Source: Promethearchaeota archaeon | Lineage (GTDB): Archaea; Asgardarchaeota; Lokiarchaeia; Sigyniarchaeales; SOKP01 | Direction of reading: 5' to 3' | Assembly (NCBI GenBank): GCA_016840165.1 | Contig: JAEOSU010000067.1 | Location: forward strand, 1-64,000 | Length of the DNA: 64,000 nucleotides | Shown here: positions 9,321 through 50,105 of the stretch, piece after piece | Layout: each line of letters starts with the position of its first letter | Position numbering within the stretch: position 1 is the stretch's first letter | Made by a program: the position numbers and the translations under genes | The notes under the pieces: model-generated | Told to the model about the DNA's origin: nothing | The model's database searches: none | Seen by the model: the letters and a program-made list of their open reading frames with translations, nothing else

Positions 9321-10838
9321 ATGTCTGACTTATATCAAAAATTAGAGAAAATAGTGTCAGAAAAGTATATTTCGAATGATATTTATGTTCGCCATGCTTA
9401 TTCGCGAAATGTGGATATTGCGTTACAAGGAATACCTGATATTGTAATACGACCAAAAGATGCACAAGAAATCACAGAAATTCTTAAAATTGCTAATGAA
9501 GAAAATAGTGCTGTAATTCCCCGTGGAGCAGGAATTTGTGAGTTTGGAGGAAGTAAACCTATTGGAGATAACGGGATTGTATTAGACTTGAAAAGAATGA
9601 ATAATATCTTAAACTTAGACAAAGAAAATCTCATTGTTACTGCTGAGGCTGGAATTTCTTGGGGCAAATTAAATGAATATCTTTGCCATCATGGTCTTTA
9701 TACAGGTTGTATGGGACCGGGCTCTGGTATGTCAGCATCAATAGGAGGAGGAATTTCTCACCATTCGGTAGGTGGTGGGGGGTGTGCTAAATATGGAGCT
9801 TGCACCAACCAATTAGTTTCATTAGAGGTTGTTTTACCAACTGGAGAGGTTATAGAAACAGGTTCTCAAGCAAATAAACACTCAAAATTTCCATTCAATC
9901 GATTTGGAAATGGCCCAGACTTAGCAGGATTATTCTGTGGAGATAATGGAATTTTTGGCGTGAAAACTAAAGTTTCATTACAAGTGTTTCCTAAGCCAGA
10001 ATATGCTGAGTATAAGACATTTTTATTACCCCGAAAAGAAAGGATAGTTTCAGCAAAAATTTTATCAGAAATTAGACATAAGGGAATTGATGTGTATGAT
10101 GCAATGTATATTATGGATCTTCTTGTCAGAGTGGGTGTTGATCAAGGCTCAATGCCTATGTATGAGAATTTAAAAAGGAAAAGAGGTTTAATTTTTTATA
10201 CTATAGAAGCTAATACTGAAGCAGAATTGGAAGAAAAAGCTAAACAATTAGATGAAATCATGATAAAAAATAAAGCAGAAAATGTTGGCTCAGAAATTTC
10301 AGACGGAAATATAGCTAAATGGCATTATGTTGAACAGGGGCATTGGCAATTCTATCATAATTTATGGGGGATGGTACCGTCCAATCAGCCTTTAACAGCT
10401 GAATCTTTTTGTCCAACAAATAAATATCCAGAAATTCTGAATGATATTGATCAATGGGATATGGAAAATAATGAGAATATGCAAAAGATTTCTGATATTA
10501 CTAAAATGCGACCTATTGCGGGAAGTGGACCAATATTATTAATAGATGGTAATAATGTAGAAATTACATGCGGATTTACAAGCTTCTGGAGTTATTTTGA
10601 CGGTGAGATCCATGATGTCATACAAGAAACAAATTTAAAACTATGGAAATCACTTTTAGAAAGAGTTACAAAACACGGGGTTCAATGGTATATGATGGGA
10701 GATTTTATGTCTCGCTTAATGGTGGATATTGGTGCTTACTCTGAGGAATATTACAACTTCATGAAGTCAATTAAAAAAATTCTTGATCCTAATATGATTT
10801 TAAGTAGAGGTAAATTTAATTTTTGGGGGGATAAATAA
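9321..10838 (+). CDS. FAD-binding oxidoreductase (GlcD/Dld family)
   Basis: PDIVIRP, PRGAG, AEAG, SIGG, LEVVLPTG, GPDLAGLFCGDNGIFGV, DPNMIL motifs. Confidence 0.9.
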   Translation: MSDLYQKLEKIVSEKYISNDIYVRHAYSRNVDIALQGIPDIVIRPKDAQEITEILKIANEENSAVIPRGAGICEFGGSKPIGDNGIVLDLKRMNNILNLDKENLIVTAEAGISWGKLNEYLCHHGLYTGCMGPGSGMSASIGGGISHHSVGGGGCAKYGACTNQLVSLEVVLPTGEVIETGSQANKHSKFPFNRFGNGPDLAGLFCGDNGIFGVKTKVSLQVFPKPEYAEYKTFLLPRKERIVSAKILSEIRHKGIDVYDAMYIMDLLVRVGVDQGSMPMYENLKRKRGLIFYTIEANTEAELEEKAKQLDEIMIKNKAENVGSEISDGNIAKWHYVEQGHWQFYHNLWGMVPSNQPLTAESFCPTNKYPEILNDIDQWDMENNENMQKISDITKMRPIAGSGPILLIDGNNVEITCGFTSFWSYFDGEIHDVIQETNLKLWKSLLERVTKHGVQWYMMGDFMSRLMVDIGAYSEEYYNFMKSIKKILDPNMILSRGKFNFWGDK

Positions 10839-10839
10839 A

Positions 10840-10895
10840 GTGAGTGAATTAAAGCATTTGAAAAATGAATGGGAAGCTATAATGAGTTGTATGGG
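10840..10895 (+). pseudogene. Original 5' fragment (MSELKHLKNEWEAIMSCMG) of the interrupted Fe-S oxidoreductase
   Basis: GTG one base after the GlcD-like stop; joining 10895 to 16492 gives TGT ATG GGT TGT GGG GAT TGT (CMGCGDC) in frame with the 16492-17671 body. Confidence 0.85.
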
Positions 10896-10908
10896 AGAAA
10901 AAAATTTA

Positions 10909-11376
10909 TTAAATAAAGATAAATGTAAGTACTAGAGTAAAATCAATTAATATTAAGAGAGAAAATATAAACCAATAAACCTTTTTTACTTTATTTATAA
11001 ATGAGTCTTTAAATTGAAATTTTACTTCAATAAATTTTTTAACTGATTTAATTTTCTCAGATTCATTTGCATATTCAGTGGGATTAATATATTTAAAAGG
11101 ATGTAAATATTTCTCATCAGAAAATATTTCAAAATTAGTTTCCTCATTTAGATTTAGTTTCTCACTTATTTTTATATTTGTACCTCGCCATTCAGCCCAT
11201 CTTTTATAATGCCTTTCGCTATTTGATTTAATTGTAAATAAAATGAGTACTAAGAATGCTGTTATACTTAATACAAATGAAATTTTACAGATTTTATCTA
11301 AAATTGTGTTTGATATATTAAATAGAAAAGGAATTATGGTTAAAATAGGTATAAAAATTGTCGTTATAGTCATCAA
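10909..11376 (-). CDS. Small multi-TM membrane protein, possibly 5'-truncated
   Basis: Three hydrophobic segments; frame stays open upstream to ~11484 without ATG/GTG/TTG and runs into the start of the divergent ATPase. Confidence 0.55.
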   Translation of the reverse strand: MMTITTIFIPILTIIPFLFNISNTILDKICKISFVLSITAFLVLILFTIKSNSERHYKRWAEWRGTNIKISEKLNLNEETNFEIFSDEKYLHPFKYINPTEYANESEKIKSVKKFIEVKFQFKDSFINKVKKVYWFIFSLLILIDFTLVLTFIFI

Positions 11377-11478
11377 AAATTTTAAATTTTCCCATATTTG
11401 ATTAATGTCAAATAATTCCTTTTCATGATATTTATCATATAAAAATTTTAAATTATCGAAATCAAATTTGCTGGGGTT

Positions 11479-13914
11479 ATGGGATTATTTCTCGTTGGAA
11501 CGATTATTATTATTTCAATTGGAATAATAATCTACATTATAATAATCCCATTTGATAAAGAATACAAAGCCTTAACCATTTTTGTTATTTTTTCCTTGGA
11601 AATATATATTTTAATTACCATTCGAGAATGGCTTCTAGCATTAATATTATTTGGGGCGATTTCATTCGTGGTTTCATTAGGCCATGAATCATTTAGAAAT
11701 AGAATTGTATCCATTTATCAAACAACTTTAGTTTCTTCAAAAAAGACAAGTTCAAAGATATTAAAACCATTAAAGAAGAAAGGTCATAAGAATTCACCTT
11801 TAAAAAATGATAAAAATGGAAAGAACGAGAAGAAGAAAAGAGCTTTATTCTGGCATGCAAGAGTAAAAATCTTACAAGGAACTCTTGAAAAAGAACCAAT
11901 TGAGAAAGACAAGACTAATCAAAATATAAAAACGTGGCTACAAGATTACTTTTCAAACAGTTCAAGATATTGTCTTGAGCTGGTTTCCCATAAAGATTTT
12001 AATTGGACGTTTTTAATGAGAGCTCGAAGGGAAGCTAAAGCACGTATTATTGGGGAAGCATTACTCACTCGTCTTTTAAGTATTTTTCCAGGTGTAGATG
12101 CAGAATTGGAAATTGAACCAGTAACACGCAAGAAAATCTATAAAAACAATGTATTTTGGGAAATCAAACTTCCTAAACCACCATATTTAGAAAAATTTAC
12201 CTTAATCAATGATTTTATAACGATTTTTCATAGAAGTAAACAAGAAATAAAAGTATATATAATGTGGAAAAAAGCAACTCCCAGAAAAATCGAAAAAATC
12301 AGATATAAAATTCAAAGAATGAAATTCAAGGATGAGGATGAGAAAAAGCAATATTTAAAAATGTGGGAAGAGGAACTTTTTCGAGTAAGAATTTTTGTCA
12401 GCTATCGAATTTTTGAAAAAGATCTTAGGGAAAGAGAACTTGAATTACAAAGGATTGAAGGAAGAATTAAGAGTTTAACTATGTCTGGTAGAAATTTGAA
12501 AAAAGCAGCTCAAATTAAAAGAGTCACCTCAGGAACCTATGGTAATATTCTTCGAGTTAATTTATTCTCTGGTAGTTATATCACGCCTTATTGCGTCGAT
12601 TTTGATATTCTTAAAATTACACCTTTAGTAAAACCTTTTACTCTTGAAAGTGAGAATGTGAAATATATCCCTACAGATATCAGTAATCCCGATTATATCT
12701 TAATTGGACGCCACGTGAATCAGGGAAGAAAAACAGAACATCGAATGCTGATTCAAAAGAATGGATTTGCTCAGAGTCTATTAGTAGCAGGGCAACAAGG
12801 CACAGGAAAAACTTATTTATTAGCTCAAATTGTAAACGAATTTCATAAGAAAGCGCCTGATATTGGTATTTTAATCTTGAATCTTGGAAAAGGGAACCAA
12901 GAAGGATTTTATAAGACTGATAAAGTGATTAAATTTGGTTCTCCTGATTTTCATGTTCCTTATTTTGTAAATGGACATTATCTTGAAAGGAGCATTCAAG
13001 AGACTGCTACTTATTTAATTGCTTCAACGGGATTAAAAAACATCGTAGAAAAAAACATGGTTAATGTAATGCAAGCATTTATAGATAAAAAAGGGAAATT
13101 ACCACGTTCATTAAAGTTTTTGTTTAAAGAATTGATAAGATACTTTGATCTCCACCCCTACCATGTAAAATTTCAAACTAATATATTACGAGCACTAAAA
13201 AATAGAGTATTAAGTCTTTTATCAAATCCAGTTCTAGAAAAGGCTATTAATCTAGCTCCTAATGATGAAATCCCTCAATGGTTTAAAGATTGGAGAAAAG
13301 GTAAAAAAGTATTCCTCGATCTCTCAATGTGTAATATTTATGAAAAACGATTAATAACCAATGCGATTTTTCAATTAATTCGCTCTCGCACACCTGATAT
13401 TGAGGTAGGGAAGCTTCAAAATATAATCTTGATTGATGAAGCTCATCAGATTTTAGAGAAATCTATAACCAACAATTATGATGATGATGACTATATTTCA
13501 AGAACTCAATTAGAGAAAATATTCAATGAATTATTGCGAGAATTCCGTTCAAAAGGTTTCTCTTTCATACTTTCTGACCAAACACCTTCAAGGCTTTTCG
13601 ACTGCGTTATTACACTTCCAAGCCTGAAAATATTGTTCCGTGTGGGTCATCCATGTAACACACGATTAGTTGGGAATCAAAAAGAGCAGGATTTTTTAAT
13701 GCTCCAAAAAAATCGACAAGCTTTGGTTCTGAACGGGATTACTGGTGAAAAATATATTATTGAAACTCTAGATTTTTCGTTACCACATCAAGGACCTGAG
13801 GGATCCATTAGATCAATAGATGATCAAAGATTTTGTGAATATTGTGGAACTCAAGTTGATTCTGATGCGAAATTTTGCGATTGCTGTGGAAAACCATTTC
13901 TTTTTTTTGATTAA
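11479..13914 (+). CDS. Membrane-anchored HerA/VirB4/FtsK-superfamily (DUF87-like) ATPase with C-terminal zinc ribbon
   Basis: N-terminal TM helices, Walker A GQQGTGKT, Walker B IILIDEAH, REFRSKG and SDQTPS motifs, CEYC..CDCC tail. Confidence 0.85.
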   Translation: MGLFLVGTIIIISIGIIIYIIIIPFDKEYKALTIFVIFSLEIYILITIREWLLALILFGAISFVVSLGHESFRNRIVSIYQTTLVSSKKTSSKILKPLKKKGHKNSPLKNDKNGKNEKKKRALFWHARVKILQGTLEKEPIEKDKTNQNIKTWLQDYFSNSSRYCLELVSHKDFNWTFLMRARREAKARIIGEALLTRLLSIFPGVDAELEIEPVTRKKIYKNNVFWEIKLPKPPYLEKFTLINDFITIFHRSKQEIKVYIMWKKATPRKIEKIRYKIQRMKFKDEDEKKQYLKMWEEELFRVRIFVSYRIFEKDLRERELELQRIEGRIKSLTMSGRNLKKAAQIKRVTSGTYGNILRVNLFSGSYITPYCVDFDILKITPLVKPFTLESENVKYIPTDISNPDYILIGRHVNQGRKTEHRMLIQKNGFAQSLLVAGQQGTGKTYLLAQIVNEFHKKAPDIGILILNLGKGNQEGFYKTDKVIKFGSPDFHVPYFVNGHYLERSIQETATYLIASTGLKNIVEKNMVNVMQAFIDKKGKLPRSLKFLFKELIRYFDLHPYHVKFQTNILRALKNRVLSLLSNPVLEKAINLAPNDEIPQWFKDWRKGKKVFLDLSMCNIYEKRLITNAIFQLIRSRTPDIEVGKLQNIILIDEAHQILEKSITNNYDDDDYISRTQLEKIFNELLREFRSKGFSFILSDQTPSRLFDCVITLPSLKILFRVGHPCNTRLVGNQKEQDFLMLQKNRQALVLNGITGEKYIIETLDFSLPHQGPEGSIRSIDDQRFCEYCGTQVDSDAKFCDCCGKPFLFFD

Positions 13915-13962
13915 ATCTTCTTATTAGTTTACTTTAAATTAGTCTGTCAAAAAATATATCAA

Positions 13963-14544
13963 ATGAGTGAATATGATGAAGAAGTGGAGAGTGAGGATGC
14001 AACTGATGATTATGAGGAATCTGAAGAATTGGATGAAGATGCCACAGATGACTATGAACCATTAGATGAAAATGAGGAACTTGAGAATGAAACTGACGAA
14101 GAGCTTGAAAATGATTTCGAACCGTTGGATGAAACTGATGAACTTGAAGACGAAATTGAGAATGATTTCGATCCTCGTGATGAATATGAAGATTTAGAAA
14201 AGGATAAAGAAGAACTTGAGGATTCTCAAGATAATCCTAAAGATATTAATGAAATAACTAAAGATAACTCTAGAGATGGCTTAAATAATAAACAATATCA
14301 TACAATGAGACTTGATGTCCCTCCTGGACGCTTCCCCCCAGAAAAACCAAAAGTTAGACGCCAAAAAGAGAAGAATCCAAGACCTCCTAAAAAAAAAGGG
14401 AAACTAATCGATTGGAATAGATTAAAGAAAATGTTACCCCTTAAAAAAAGGAAGAAAAAGATTTTTACAAAAAATGTTGAAGAACTCAAGGAAGAACTTA
14501 CGACTGTCAAATATAAAGAATTAAAGTATAAAAAACATAAATAA
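13963..14544 (+). CDS. Low-complexity protein with acidic repeat N-terminus and basic C-terminus
   Basis: Repeats EDATDDYE x2 and ENDFEPLDE/ENDFDPRDE, then Lys/Pro-rich tail. Confidence 0.7.
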   Translation: MSEYDEEVESEDATDDYEESEELDEDATDDYEPLDENEELENETDEELENDFEPLDETDELEDEIENDFDPRDEYEDLEKDKEELEDSQDNPKDINEITKDNSRDGLNNKQYHTMRLDVPPGRFPPEKPKVRRQKEKNPRPPKKKGKLIDWNRLKKMLPLKKRKKKIFTKNVEELKEELTTVKYKELKYKKHK

Positions 14545-14559
14545 CAAGGTGAAAATCTC

Positions 14560-16278
14560 ATAGGAGAATATGGGGAGGACGATTCCAAAGAAGAGAATAA
14601 GGAAATTGACAATAAGCTCAATCAAATAATAAAAAAAAAAAATAGTGAACTAATCAATGATTTTGAGCCTCTTGAAGAAAACCAAGATTTAAATGAAAGT
14701 CTTGAATCTAAATTTGAACCTAAAGATGAATCAAAATATATAAAAAATGACTTTGAAAAATATGAGCCAAATTCTGAATTTGAACATATAAATTATAACT
14801 ATAAAAGTAAAGAAAATTCAAAAAATGAAGGTTTCGATATTGAAAAGATTAAAAAAGCGATTAAAAAAAAGGATTGGGATGAAATTTCAAAGGATTGGAC
14901 AATCAAAATCCAAAAAAATCAGTATTCAGACATAGAGACTATTCAATTAAATCCTAGTCAAGATATTTCCAAGGAGAATCCCTTATATAAACATAAAGAG
15001 TGGTTAAATACAATCTATAATAATAAGCAATTAAACTTATATGACAAAGAAATTGGAAAAATTTGTGGAGTCAATACTTCTACAATTGGGAAATGGCGAA
15101 AAAAACATAATATACCAATAAAACCTTTAGGTAAAGGAAGATATATAGACAGAAGAAGTGGTAGAGTATATATTCGAGTTCCGAAAGATTATAATCACCC
15201 AGAATTGGGAAATTATAAAGATAGGATAAGAAATTTTCGACTAGAACATATTTATGTAATAGAACAGTATTTATCAAAACATCCTGAACTAGAAATCTCA
15301 AAGAAATTCTTAATAGATGGTAAATATTTAAAAATTGGATGTGAAATCCACCATATAAATCAAAATCCTCAAGACAATAAAATAGAAAATTTATGGGTCT
15401 ATAAAACAAAAAATGATCATGCTGAAGGTGAATTATCTTTGCGGGATTCTTTACAATTTTTAATAAAAACAAATCGAATTAGATTTAAAGATGGGAGATA
15501 CTATATAAATCAAGATAATAATTCTACTTTAAATCATTCTACTGAAGTTTCTATAAATCAAGATATTAAAGAACCTATCAATTATAAAGACATAAATTTA
15601 GTTAAAGATGAAATTAAAAAGATTAGTTGGGAAAAAATTTCAAATAATTGGACCGTAAAAAATCGAATCAACCAATTTGTAGAAAAAAAGATTCAAGTAG
15701 ATCCTACGAGGGAATGTTCAGTTGAAAATCCGCTCTATAAACATAAAGAATGGGTTGAAAGAATAATTAAAGATAAACGCTATAATTTAACAGATTCTAG
15801 ATTTGGAAAATTATGTGGAATATCAAGGGATAAAGCACGGTACTGGAGGGATAAAGTCCATAATATTAAAGGAAAAACAGATTGGGGCTATGACCGTATT
15901 GTTGATCCTAGTGATGGAAGAATTTGGATTAAGGTACCTGATGATTATGAAAATCCTATTGTTAAGAAGGAAGATCATCAACGTCGAAATATGTTAGAAC
16001 ATCGTTATAATATGGAACGATATCTTTCTGAACATCCAGAACTTAGAATTACTCAAGAAGCTTTAATCGATGGTAAATATTTAAAAACAGAATATCAAGT
16101 ACACCATATAAACTTAGACTTTCAAGATAATAGAATAGAAAACTTATGGGTTTTTAAAAACAATAAACTTCATCTGAAGGCTAGAGAATCTCTATATGCT
16201 CTAGTGGAAGATTTATTAAAACAAACTCAAATCATTTTCAAGGATGGAAAATATGAAATAAATAAAGAAAAGAATTAA
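14560..16278 (+). CDS. 572-aa protein: acidic NDFEPL leader plus two tandem HTH-HNH endonuclease units; probable ATA start
   Basis: Frame open from ATA 14560 (AGGTGA upstream) into the listed 15205 ORF; two copies of ENPLYKHKEW..GKxCG..W and EH..IHHIN..QDN.IENLWV. Confidence 0.85.
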   Translation: MGEYGEDDSKEENKEIDNKLNQIIKKKNSELINDFEPLEENQDLNESLESKFEPKDESKYIKNDFEKYEPNSEFEHINYNYKSKENSKNEGFDIEKIKKAIKKKDWDEISKDWTIKIQKNQYSDIETIQLNPSQDISKENPLYKHKEWLNTIYNNKQLNLYDKEIGKICGVNTSTIGKWRKKHNIPIKPLGKGRYIDRRSGRVYIRVPKDYNHPELGNYKDRIRNFRLEHIYVIEQYLSKHPELEISKKFLIDGKYLKIGCEIHHINQNPQDNKIENLWVYKTKNDHAEGELSLRDSLQFLIKTNRIRFKDGRYYINQDNNSTLNHSTEVSINQDIKEPINYKDINLVKDEIKKISWEKISNNWTVKNRINQFVEKKIQVDPTRECSVENPLYKHKEWVERIIKDKRYNLTDSRFGKLCGISRDKARYWRDKVHNIKGKTDWGYDRIVDPSDGRIWIKVPDDYENPIVKKEDHQRRNMLEHRYNMERYLSEHPELRITQEALIDGKYLKTEYQVHHINLDFQDNRIENLWVFKNNKLHLKARESLYALVEDLLKQTQIIFKDGKYEINKEKN

Positions 16279-16374
16279 AATAATACAGTTGGCTAGAATG
16301 GCAATATTAAGAAATTTTAATTATTAATGAAATTATATTCTTTTTATCTTAGAAAAAAATTTATTGCTGTAATA

Positions 16375-16449
16375 ATGTCAAAATTGAAAAATTTAAAAGA
16401 ACAATGGCAGGCCATAATGTCCTGTATAGGTTTTGGAATCTCTCCTTAA
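16375..16449 (+). CDS. Element-borne replacement 5' fragment of the Fe-S oxidoreductase (MSKLKNLKEQWQAIMSCIG-FGISP*)
   Basis: 13/19 aa identical to the 10840 fragment with diverged codons; out of frame with the gene body unless 61 nt are skipped. Confidence 0.8.
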   Translation: MSKLKNLKEQWQAIMSCIGFGISP

Positions 16450-16502
16450 TCGCGGAAAGGTTTATAATTATATTTATAACTCCCGCTTGGGTTGTGGGGA
16501 TT
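16437..16502 (+). other. Terminal imperfect hairpin at the element's right end (within the 61-nt coding gap)
   Basis: GCGG(16452-55)/CCGC(16483-86) and TTATAA/TTATAA inner stem; CTTAA/TTGGG and AATCTCT/GGGGATT outer pairing. Confidence 0.6.
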
Positions 16503-17671
16503 GTGGGTATGCTATTAGACCATTTGTTGGAAGATATTTAACTTGTCCTGTGAAAGAGGCAAAAGGTGAAGAGGGTTTCGAAATTTATTTTGCTCGTGGT
16601 CGAATGAATGTGTTAAAGAGTATCTTGGAAGGACAAATTCCACTAAGCAAGGAACTCGCTGAGTGGATATATGAATGTTCTGAATGTGGAAATTGTACAG
16701 AAGTTTGCCATATGACACATAATGAACATATCATTTTACCAACAAGCAAGTGGATCGATCATGTAAAAGTATGGGATGCTTTGAGAAGAGATTTAGTAGA
16801 AGCTGGGTTTGCTCCCCTTGATCACCATGAGGAATTGGTTCAATATATGAACAATGATGATATGAAAAATCCATACGGTGAAGATAAAGCTAAAAAATTT
16901 GAGTGGGCGAAAGAATTTCCAAATATTAAAAATAAGGGAGAATTTGTATTTTTTGCTGGTTGTACAATGCCATTAAGACAAGCTGACACATTAAAAAGCA
17001 TGATGAAAGTTTTACAATCATCAGGAATGGAAATTGCATTATCAAAAGACGAATGGTGTTGTGGCTCTATTGGAATCCGAATAGGCGAATATAAATCTGT
17101 GGACGAACTTTTAAAACACAATCTCGAAATTTTCAAGAATATGGGTGCGAAAACAGTATTTACTGCTTGTGCAGGGTGTTATAGAACTTTAAAGAAAGAT
17201 TATCCTGAGCTGTTGAGCGAGGAATTACCCTTCGAAGTAAAACATATTACAGAAGTTTTAGTTGAATTGATAAATAATAACAAAATATTATTCGATTCTG
17301 CTAAAGAGGAACAAATAAAAGTAACATATCATGATCCTTGTCATCTAGGACGTCATATGGATTTGTATGAAATACCAAGAGAAATTATTGCTAAAATTCC
17401 TGGTGTTGAATTGATAGAAATGAAGAGAAATCGAAAACACGCATGGTGTTGTGGTGCAGGTGGAGGTGTGAAAAGCCAATTTCCAGACTTAGCGAAAGAT
17501 ATTTCGAAAGAAAGAATTAGAGAGGCAGTAGAATCCGGAGCAGATATATTAACAACTAGTTGTCCTTTTTGTATAGGAAATCTGAATGATGCATATGATG
17601 AAATGGAGCTGGAGATTAAAGAAAAAATTAAATTAATTGACATCATTGATTTTATTGCTTCAAAAATTTAG
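16492..17671 (+). CDS. (Fe-S)-binding oxidoreductase, GlpC/HdrD-like with two CCG domains; 3' body of the interrupted gene (ORF track starts it at TTG 16433)
   Basis: CGDC...TCP, ARGR, CSECGNCTEVC, FFAGC, WCCG, ACAGC, YHDPCHLGR, CCGAGGG, SCPFC. Confidence 0.9.
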
Positions 17672-36722: not shown

Positions 36723-37664
36723 ATGCAAATTTCAAAATTCAATAGTAATTCTCCATTTGTTCATACTTATTCTATTGTAGCAAGAGATCCCATTACAGGA
36801 GAAATGGGTGTGGGAGTTCAAAGTCATTATTTTTCTGTTGGTTCGGTCGTATCGTGGGGGGAATCTGGCGTTGGAGTAGTTGCTACCCAATCTTTTGTAA
36901 ATAAATCTTTTGGATTACGAGGACTTGAGTTATTGAAACAAGGAAAAACTCCTCAAGAAGCAGTAGATATTTTGCTTTCAGATGATGATGGAAGAGATGT
37001 AAGACAAGTTTCAATTTTAGATGTTAAAGGAAAAGTAGCAACTTGTACTGGTTCAAAATGCATAAAATATGCTGGCCATTTTAAAGGAGATAATTTTTCA
37101 GTTCAAGCAAATCTCATGCTCTCGGATAAAGTTTGGCCAAAAATGGCAGAAGCCTATGAAAAGCATAAAACACTTCCATTACCTGATCGAATAATTAGAT
37201 CTATGGAAGCAGCAGAGATTGTAGGAGGGGATATAAGAGGAAAACAGTCTGCAGCATTATTAATTGTAAAGGGTGATCCAGTAGAAAACAAATGGGAGGA
37301 TCCACTGATTGATATTAGAGTGGAGGATCATAATGAGCCTTTAAAAGAATTAGATAGATTACTGAAACTTTGGAGAGCATATAATCACTTGGATAAAGGT
37401 GACCAAGAATTCGAGAAAGGAAATATAAATGAGGCTTTTGAAGAATATAATACTGCTAGAAAAATGTTTCCCGATGATCTTGAGATGAAATATTGGACAG
37501 CAGTTACATTAGCTAATCATCAAAAACTTGATGAAGCTTTACCATTATTCAAAGAAATCTTCAAAAAGGATAATAATTGGCGAATACTTACAGAAAGATT
37601 ACCTGAAACAGATCTTTTAAATGTAAAAAAGGAAGAAATAGACAAAATCCTATCTCTTAAATAA
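36723..37664 (+). CDS. DUF1028 (Ntn-hydrolase-like) protein with C-terminal TPR
   Basis: HTYSIVARD, GVVATQS, GGDIRGKQSAAL, DIRVEDH. Confidence 0.88.
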   Translation: MQISKFNSNSPFVHTYSIVARDPITGEMGVGVQSHYFSVGSVVSWGESGVGVVATQSFVNKSFGLRGLELLKQGKTPQEAVDILLSDDDGRDVRQVSILDVKGKVATCTGSKCIKYAGHFKGDNFSVQANLMLSDKVWPKMAEAYEKHKTLPLPDRIIRSMEAAEIVGGDIRGKQSAALLIVKGDPVENKWEDPLIDIRVEDHNEPLKELDRLLKLWRAYNHLDKGDQEFEKGNINEAFEEYNTARKMFPDDLEMKYWTAVTLANHQKLDEALPLFKEIFKKDNNWRILTERLPETDLLNVKKEEIDKILSLK

Positions 37665-48886: not shown

Positions 48887-49683
48887 TATTGATTTTTCTT
48901 TCTAAATGAAGCTCTTAGTCTTTTTACAATTTCAATTACTGATGTATCTTGTTCAGTTAAACGTAAAAATACATCTTCTAAGCTTGCGCCTACTTTATTT
49001 GCCTTTTGACGGAGTTCTTCAATAGTACCAATCCCAACAATTTTACCCTTATTTATAATTGCTATACGGTCGCATAAATCTTGAGCAATCTCCATTATAT
49101 GGGTAGAAAATAAGACAGATCCTCCATTTTCTATATGTAAATCTAGTATTTCTTTCATTACTTTGACTGATTTGGCATCAAGCCCTGCAATTGGCTCATC
49201 TAAAATTAATAAATCGGGATCATGTAGAATAGCTGCAATGATCTGAAGTTTTTGTTTGTTACCATGAGATAATGTTGCTATTAATTGGTCATAATATTCA
49301 AGTGCATCAAAACTTTCTAAATATTCTCGTACTCGTTCTGTAGTAGTAGTTTCATCTAATCTTCTAATTGATGCTATAAAGTTAAATAAATCTTTAGGTG
49401 TAAGCGACTTGAATATTAAGGGTTCTTCTGACACATAGCCTATTCTTTTTTTTATTTTGACTTCCTCTCGTTCAGGATTTAACCCAAAAATACTCATTTC
49501 TCCTTCATTTGGTTCAAGTAAGCCGAGAAGAAGCTTAATAGTTGTTGTTTTCCCCGCTCCGTTCGGACCAAGGAGTCCAAATACTTCTCCTTTATGTACA
49601 TTAAAAGAAATGCCATTAACGGCTTTCACTTCTCCAAAAAACTTCTTTAAATTTTGAACAATAATGATTTCATTATTAATCAT
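48886..49683 (-). CDS. ABC transporter ATP-binding subunit
   Basis: GPNGAGKTT, LSHGNKQ, ILDEP, STH. Confidence 0.95.
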   Translation of the reverse strand: MINNEIIIVQNLKKFFGEVKAVNGISFNVHKGEVFGLLGPNGAGKTTTIKLLLGLLEPNEGEMSIFGLNPEREEVKIKKRIGYVSEEPLIFKSLTPKDLFNFIASIRRLDETTTTERVREYLESFDALEYYDQLIATLSHGNKQKLQIIAAILHDPDLLILDEPIAGLDAKSVKVMKEILDLHIENGGSVLFSTHIMEIAQDLCDRIAIINKGKIVGIGTIEELRQKANKVGASLEDVFLRLTEQDTSVIEIVKRLRASFRKKNQ

Positions 49684-50105
49684 TTCAAATCAACTTTGAT
49701 ATATTTCTATATATATTTACATATAATATTCATAATTCATAATTCTTCCTAATTAATTCTAAAAAAATTAACCTTATGATAGTTTCTACTTCGTTGACTA
49801 TCAAGAATCTCTGTATAATACTGAATCTTAGACCAAAGATGTTATGATGATATGTGTATAAGGTCGCTTTACGGTAAATCTCCATTTTTTTAAACGGAAA
49901 AATGTCCTTAGATGCGTTAAATGGAACTTCACCATTATCCTTACAATACCCTCTATAAAATTTCCTCGATATCAATTATAGTTTAGATTCTTGTCTTCGA
50001 AATTCTACAAACTCTACAAATTAATAAGTCACCTATACATAATGAAATATATAGGGGAATTTTCTTTAAAATACTATAAGAGAACTATATTAAAAAATAA
50101 TCGCT

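Follow-up and report, generated by a model that had tools for sequence, protein, structure and literature searches.

A predicted pair of nested BHB introns in the mRNA of an Asgard archaeal Fe-S oxidoreductase gene

The window analysed here, that is, the whole stretch of 64,000 nucleotides, belongs to an AT-rich genome of 3.6 Mb in 105 contigs. It carries an interrupted gene that is assigned to the TfrB/HdrD/GlcF-like Fe-S subunits, whose usual upstream partner is a GlcD-like flavoprotein gene. Among curated families, TfrB, GlcF and GlpC come closest, and the cut-off is reached for none of them. A Gtr1/RagA-like GTPase is encoded near the locus, and ARAGORN called no tRNA in the 64-kb window. 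The features of the locus are as follows; the exon and intron coordinates were checked against the window sequence.

9321..10838, plus strand: GlcD-like FAD-linked oxidase, the conserved upstream partner gene
10840..10896, plus strand: orphaned original exon 1 with a GTG start, MSELKHLKNEWEAIMSCMG, directly 3′ of the glcD-like gene
11479-13914: HerA/AAA-like ATPase with a zinc ribbon, within the insert between the orphan exon and exon 1
13963-14544: acidic protein, within the same insert
15205..16278, plus strand: free-standing gene for a tandem HNH (HNH_3) nuclease, adjoining exon 1 on its upstream side, matching Pfam HNH_3 and phage HNH PHROGs; a longer version of the frame runs from about 14560
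16375..16427, plus strand: predicted exon 1, MSKLKNLKEQWQAIMSC plus the AT of a Met codon, bearing the first Cys of CxxCxxC
16428..16457, plus strand: predicted intron i1, 30 nt, with the relaxed motif BHB-1
16458..16488, plus strand: predicted intron i2, 31 nt, with the strict motif BHB-2, located exactly in the 3′ cut site of i1
16489..17671, plus strand: predicted exon 2, opening with the G of the Met codon and GCGDCGYAIRP and encoding the rest of the dicluster domain and two CCG domains

The ATG at 16375 opens a short frame, MSKLKNLKEQWQAIMSCIGFGISP, which ends at the stop codon TAA at 16447-16449. This frame reads TGT ATA GGT at 16423-16431, and the long frame restarts in another phase with GGT TGT GGG GAT TGT from 16490. 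The long frame has 393 codons and runs from GCGDCGYAIRP through the second cluster motif and the two CCG domains. A gap of 61 nt, which carries the stop and shifts the frame, lies between the exon 1 piece (19 codons, 16375-16427) and the gene body (from 16489), and the CxxCxxC motif is restored once the 61 nt are taken out. The sequence is in this respect just as the first-pass annotation of the window had described it, with a frame-breaking gap, matched GGT codons, a stop and a body in a different frame. Exon 1 shares homology with the N-terminal part of uninterrupted orthologues (MSELKHLKxEWKAIFSCM). The match to Pfam Fer4_8 scores 31.2 bits with exon 1 attached against 24.8 bits without it, and the cut-off is passed only when exon 1 is included.

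A second copy of the Fe-S gene, with 73% amino acid identity, is found in the same assembly on the minus strand of another contig (C79:40875-42050, locus L022). It has a single insert of 31 nt and its own pair of glcD-like genes upstream, and is a genuine paralogue or else comes from a second strain in the bin, for which contamination is estimated at 6.3%.

The interruption was compared across relatives in 42 genomes of the same genus and in 80 contigs from one metagenome scan, in which about 100 alleles cover the N-terminal junction. The uninterrupted alleles (17 from the genus and 36 from the metagenome, 53 together) read SCM followed by GCGDC, and the junction Met codon is ATG in 34 of the 36 metagenome alleles. 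At the identical site, 12 of 29 alleles of the genus and 37 of 73 metagenome alleles are interrupted, 49 in all, and the interruption of this site is far beyond chance. The position of the insert is constant, after TGYAT and before G-GGN-TGY. Its length is either 29-34 nt, corresponding to one unit, or 56-61 nt, corresponding to two units. When the insert is cut in the BHB register, the junction AT|G gives Met and the CxxCxxC continuation follows in 49 of 49 interrupted alleles. The register supported in the window allele is thus removal of 16428-16488, which yields SCMGCGDC, and not the skip of 16432-16492 to SCIGCGDC that had been put forward in the first-pass annotation.

The residue that follows the junction Met varies among the alleles. 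It is Ser in the uninterrupted allele L033 (genome G051; TCG TGC ATG TCG TGC) and Asn in the interrupted alleles L119, L137 and L144, in which exon 2 begins with GAAT or GAAC. The combination of a TCG Ser codon with the lack of an intron in L033 may reflect precise intron loss.

Other copies of the gap were searched for in the whole genome, and with blastn-short using i1 and i2 as queries; only the locus itself and chance AT-rich words were recovered. The introns thus do not belong to a family of repeated sequences, and the gap is unlikely to be a repeat element at the DNA level, since neither other genomic copies nor a target duplication were found. Boundaries of the spliceosomal type, GT...AG, were also tried on the short inserts and rejected, as they leave the frame broken.

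The BHB geometry was fitted to the alleles one by one, with the final six bases of the exon read as a 4-nt helix strand plus two bulge bases and with cleavage between the second and third bulge residues (PMC2738675). This geometry fits every allele in a single register, the one that yields ATG. In the window, the central helix of BHB-1 is formed by CTGT (16422-16425) with GCGG (16452-16455). The bulges are AT^A (16426-16428) and AA^G (16456-16457 plus 16489 after loss of i2), and the inner hairpin spans 16429-16451. The outer helix has 2 bp only, TC of the Ser codon (16420-16421) with GG (16490-16491), so that BHB-1 is classed as a relaxed motif. BHB-2 shares a strand with it: GCGG (16452-16455) pairs with CCGC (16483-16486), flanked by the bulges AA^A (16456-16458) and TT^G (16487-16489), the latter being NN^G across the long alleles. 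Its inner hairpin lies at 16459-16482. Its outer helix of 7-8 bp joins the 3′ strand of the first hairpin to the start of exon 2, CCTTAATC (16444-16451) with GGTTGTGG (16490-16497), and BHB-2 is classed as a strict motif. The inserts of the long alleles open with 30 nt that are arranged like a short insert and close with GCRGAA; the 26-31 nt after them make up the second BHB. As the BHB of i2 uses the same GCRG as that of i1, i2 lies exactly in the 3′ cut site of i1. The gap had previously been described as folding into a hairpin; it does fold, as two hairpins (16429-16451 and 16459-16482) rather than one.

Pairing in these motifs is maintained across alleles that differ in sequence. On alignment A1, a MAFFT alignment of 12 alleles, 91% of the BHB-1 cells are paired, as against 74% in column shuffles (0 of 500) and 34-50% with slid partners. 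The covariation score of BHB-1 on A1 is 0.605 compared with 0.275 after shuffling, and 10 of 15 pairs change on both sides. When 3′ halves were swapped between alleles, the observed inner-helix pairing was never reached (0 of 20000). Over 37 distinct units, metagenome alleles included, the central helix of BHB-1 is 98% paired with 15 different H/H′ combinations, among them TTGT/ACAA, GTGC/GCGT and TTGC/GTGA. For BHB-2, represented by 7 distinct units, 91% are paired against 38-47% with slid partners, and the GCGG/CCGC of the window is replaced by GCAG/CTGC, a compensatory change, in L013 and L039. The conservation and covariation of the gap in other filled alleles, which the first-pass annotation had named as a check on its reading, are borne out by the same-site inserts and by the pairing on A1.

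The MFE fold of 16395-16530 is not significantly better than that of shuffled sequences (z = -1.49), and BHB-1 is not drawn in it. Covariation was relied on, since MFE is a poor detector of bulged endonuclease motifs. A generic genome-wide BHB scan with an ORF-joining filter was too permissive, giving 4237 matches against about 3940 expected.

These results suggest that the gap is a pair of nested BHB introns which are spliced out of the mRNA, a reading to which we give a probability of roughly 0.85. We infer that cleavage and ligation would take place as follows. The precursor would fold first into the strict BHB-2, in which the 3′ strand of the i1 hairpin and GCGG pair with CCGC and the start of exon 2. 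An alpha-beta splicing endonuclease would cut after 16457 and 16488, after the second base of each 3-nt bulge, and RtcB would join the ends. Ligation at i2 would rebuild the 3′ bulge AA^G of i1. The RNA would then refold into the relaxed BHB-1 (CTGT/GCGG), to be cut after 16427 and 16457 and ligated. The mature mRNA would read ...TCC TGT ATG GGT TGT GGG GAT TGT..., encoding SCMGCGDC, and the first [4Fe-4S] ligand set would be restored. The predicted peptide spanning the junction of the spliced product is AIMSCMGCGDCGYAIR, with Met as the junction residue. A BHB mRNA intron had been among the alternatives of the first-pass annotation; the intron agrees with the present analysis, and the proposed cuts after 16431 and 16492 and the single intron give way to cuts after 16427, 16457 and 16488 and to two nested introns.

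The order of removal, i2 before i1, follows from the logic of pairing and is proposed with less confidence than splicing itself. Were i1 removed first, i2 would lose its helix partner, because CTGT forms only 2 of 4 pairs with CCGC; the workable order is thus i2, then i1. Removal of i1 would depend on an endonuclease tolerant of relaxed motifs such as BHB-1 with its 2-bp outer helix, and this tolerance is presumed for the host.

The genes for such a machinery are present in the genome. Two PF01974 genes were found, one for an EndA with the catalytic Y...H motif (contig C14, around 37158-37382) and one for an EndA-like subunit without the His (C4, around 49673-49921), and RtcB is encoded on contig C64 (556 bits). 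The host endonuclease presumably has an alpha+beta arrangement, its subunit stoichiometry being deduced from the genes. Hetero-oligomeric EndA has been linked to relaxed motifs and to splicing of the cbf5 mRNA (PMC2738675, PMC5829648). Inserts of the same BHB geometry were directly checked in three more genes of this genome, in each of which a 4-bp helix is flanked by 3-nt bulges, the inner helix being strong and the outer one weak:

C100:6689-6718, plus strand: BHB-type insert of 30 nt in rnhB
C87:6225-6255, plus strand: BHB-type insert of 31 nt in mvk
C58, minus strand: BHB-type insert of 43 nt in dnaG, between GAIFGQ and TEGLL

In each of them, a conserved protein motif is restored by removal of the insert, and splicing of mRNA may be routine in this organism. 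As a control, the geometry was applied to three canonical tRNA introns of the genome and fits them as well, the anticodon stem serving as outer helix. Only these canonical cases were used for the purpose, as the intron mode of ARAGORN gave inconsistent boundaries for many tRNAs.

The splicing model has to be weighed against removal of the 61 nt in a single step, for which BHB-1 would supply the 5′ bulge and BHB-2 the 3′ bulge, or for which a composite fold would be clamped by the exons, without an intermediate from which i2 has been spliced. The flanking coding segments can pair with each other, as had been claimed at first, and in the MFE structures of three long alleles both hairpins and the GCGG/CCGC helix form at once, enclosed by an exon-exon clamp of about 10 bp. 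The duplex between the last 24 nt of exon 1 and the first 24 nt of exon 2, computed for all alleles, is also stronger in interrupted ones, with a mean of -13.8 against -8.9 kcal/mol in uninterrupted ones (Mann-Whitney p ~1e-7, uncorrected for relatedness). The difference suggests selection for a clamp helix or a mere consequence of the TCN Ser codon. Against a single step, GCGG cannot pair with CTGT and CCGC simultaneously, and each half has BHB geometry independently and with covariation of its own. Moreover, the allele L119, a contig, carries i1 alone, identical at 28 of 30 positions to the i1 of long alleles, so that i1 and i2 are separable units. Removal in one step is thus considered unlikely.

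The remaining explanations leave the insert in the mRNA. A bypass of the T4 gene 60 type requires that the take-off and landing codons match and that a stop follow the take-off codon directly. A ribosome hopping on the unspliced mRNA from GGT at 16429 to GGT at 16490 would account for the matched codons, the hairpin and the neighbouring HNH gene of the window allele. However, matched codons are confined to the window, L013, L039 and L082 and are absent from most of the 40 distinct interrupted alleles; the stop comes six codons after the take-off codon rather than directly after it; the gap varies from 29 to 61 nt; the hop gives Ile where uninterrupted alleles have Met; and the covarying helices fit BHB geometry and not a take-off hairpin. 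The bypass offered in the first-pass annotation is for these reasons extremely improbable. Its suggestion of a +1 frameshift fails because frameshifting cannot remove 29-61 nt. It had also raised the possibility of a split protein, in which exon 1 is a separate 24-aa peptide and the body is made from the TTG at 16433; a broken gene, with exon 1 a dead remnant and the body so translated or not translated at all, is a variant of it. In the window allele this TTG is in frame and could in principle start a protein lacking the first Cys, and the locus has been hit by a 5.6-kb insertion. But in 26 of the 40 distinct interrupted alleles the body has no ATG, GTG or TTG start at all, and without exon 1 the first cluster Cys is lost and Fer4_8 falls below its cut-off. 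The 393-aa body frame is intact in all alleles that cover it, and exon 1 is conserved at the protein level across alleles that are 64-100% identical, so that neither a pseudogene nor a split protein can explain the allele set. A broken or split gene is very unlikely. Within the insert, a stop in the frame of exon 1 is found in 39 and a frame shift in 28 of the 40 distinct interrupted alleles.

The surroundings of the nested introns bear on how such inserts may spread. The HNH gene ends 95 bases upstream of exon 1 in the window. An HNH gene lies upstream in 11 of 49 interrupted and in 0 of 53 uninterrupted alleles, and where it is present the insert is always present as well (11 of 11). The closest homologues of the window HNH protein (51-64% identity) are encoded directly upstream of the same gene in the genomes G007 and G056 and in eight metagenome contigs, all of them interrupted. 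In all uninterrupted alleles with upstream sequence covered, glcD directly abuts the Fe-S gene. Among six phylogenetically independent HNH-intron pairs, about 4.7 go in the same direction, 0 in the opposite one and the rest are ties (p ~0.06). Other HNH homologues in the genus are found at unrelated loci with no visible interrupted gene downstream; the link between HNH gene and intron is thus specific to this Fe-S gene and not general. No sequence relative of the HNH protein was found among solved structures. The window HNH gene is a candidate homing endonuclease gene that travels with the intron-bearing allele.

The junction between glcD and the Fe-S gene is a recurrent insertion point. In the window, the orphan exon 1 stays homologous to the intact gene as far as ATGGG(A), which lies 3-4 nt beyond the site of intron insertion; its Ser codon is AGT, as is typical of uninterrupted alleles. 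Inserted DNA of about 5.6 kb (10897-16374) comes next, and then the functional gene with its own exon 1 at 16375. A shorter orphan first-exon remnant (truncated MSELKH) is found in G004, together with a membrane-protein gene, between glcD and the Fe-S gene. A gene for a short-chain dehydrogenase of about 290 aa occupies this position in the interrupted alleles L005, L006, L017 and L039 (G013, G022, G020 and G045, respectively). The orphan exon and the insert are as would be expected if a nuclease had cut an intron-less allele near the site and repair had copied the HNH gene, exon 1 and the introns.

The intron state changes at least 27 times on a gene-body tree of 99 alleles. The Ser codon before the Cys is always TCN in interrupted alleles and is AGY in 18 of 36 uninterrupted metagenome alleles. 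Between the interrupted allele L037 and its near relative L004, which is uninterrupted, identity is 78% over exon 1, rises to 82% over the 100 nt that follow and reaches 91-96% beyond them. With the interrupted L003, L037 shares 94% identity in exon 1, which is short and in which the TCN Ser is also needed by the BHB. These mosaic flanks look like gene conversion carrying the intron with its flanks; since the TCN codon is needed for the BHB itself, selection may contribute to the flank pattern.

Taken together, these observations can tentatively be read, at odds clearly below even, as a mobile cassette of BHB intron and free-standing HNH gene in Asgard chromosomes, an archaeal counterpart of collaborative homing. 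The HNH nuclease would cut the CxxCxxC-coding site of intron-less alleles, and the intron, spliced by the tRNA enzymes of the host, would split this site and protect its carrier. Repair would copy the intron, exon 1 and sometimes the HNH gene into new alleles. The window would represent one such event, in which repair used homology on the right-hand side and illegitimate joining on the other and left the orphan exon at 10840-10896 behind. The second intron, i2, would have been gained at the site where the RNA is cut to release i1.

In the known cases of collaborative or trans homing, T4 mobE acts with the nrdB intron (PMC2790892) and the cyanophage F-CphI with the psbA intron (PMC6083498; reviewed in PMC2988022). 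Like these and T4 mobA/gene 60, the Fe-S locus has an HNH gene adjoining a gene in which a conserved site is split by a short removable insert; its flanking exon sequence may also have been co-converted. The comparison with T4 mobA and gene 60 made in the first-pass annotation, an HNH gene beside a gap in its likely target, remains an apt lead to how the element spreads. The phage inserts, however, are self-splicing group I introns or are bypassed in translation, whereas the Fe-S insert is predicted to be a BHB intron spliced by proteins and resides in a cellular archaeal chromosome. The HNH protein at the Fe-S locus is a candidate nuclease with a presumed target.

The closest precedent for splicing is the BHB intron of the cbf5 pre-mRNA in Crenarchaeota (Watanabe 2002; Yoshinari 2006; Yokobori 2009, PMC2738675). 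The cbf5 and Fe-S genes are alike in having a short intron in the coding sequence, a relaxed BHB motif and cuts between the second and third bulge residues, a hetero-oligomeric splicing endonuclease in the host (as read from its genes in the Fe-S case), and a patchy presence among relatives, which points to gain and loss. The Fe-S case differs in its Asgard phylum, in the type of gene, an Fe-S oxidoreductase, and in the two nested introns at one site. It also differs in that presence of the intron is polymorphic within one genus and a homing-type HNH gene adjoins. Splicing of cbf5 has been proven by cDNA, whereas the Fe-S introns are here read from sequence. In Haloferax volcanii, a BHB intron in the 5′ UTR of HVO_1309 is a substrate of EndA within an mRNA (PMC7714728); it has no frame to restore, unlike the Fe-S introns, which lie in coding sequence. 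Archaeal tRNA genes carry multiple and non-canonical BHB introns, and Asgard tRNA genes are heavily interrupted (bioRxiv 10.64898/2026.10.13.758758). The Fe-S introns share with them the size class (~15-50 nt), the motif and the presumed enzymes. Their host RNA is an mRNA, unlike that of tRNA introns, and splicing would decide the reading frame; the text of the Asgard tRNA-intron preprint makes no mention of mRNA or nested introns (bioRxiv 10.64898/2026.10.13.758758).

In the literature searched, cbf5 of Crenarchaeota is the only archaeal coding sequence documented to be spliced by the tRNA endonuclease, and one Haloferax 5′ UTR intron may be added (PMC7714728, PMC2738675). If splicing is confirmed at the Fe-S gene, gene callers would systematically truncate such genes, as here, where the annotated product would start at a spurious TTG and lack a cluster ligand. 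Two nested introns that can leave in one order only would then mean that protein-dependent splicing of archaeal mRNA can be multi-step, and the homing-type nuclease link and the mosaic exon flanks would point to a concrete DNA-level route for the spread of BHB introns. The mobile-cassette reading, if true, would further hint that new BHB introns can arise at sites which the endonuclease already cleaves. With about 100 alleles having zero, one or two predicted introns at one site, the locus amounts to a natural experiment in the prokaryotes most closely related to eukaryotes.
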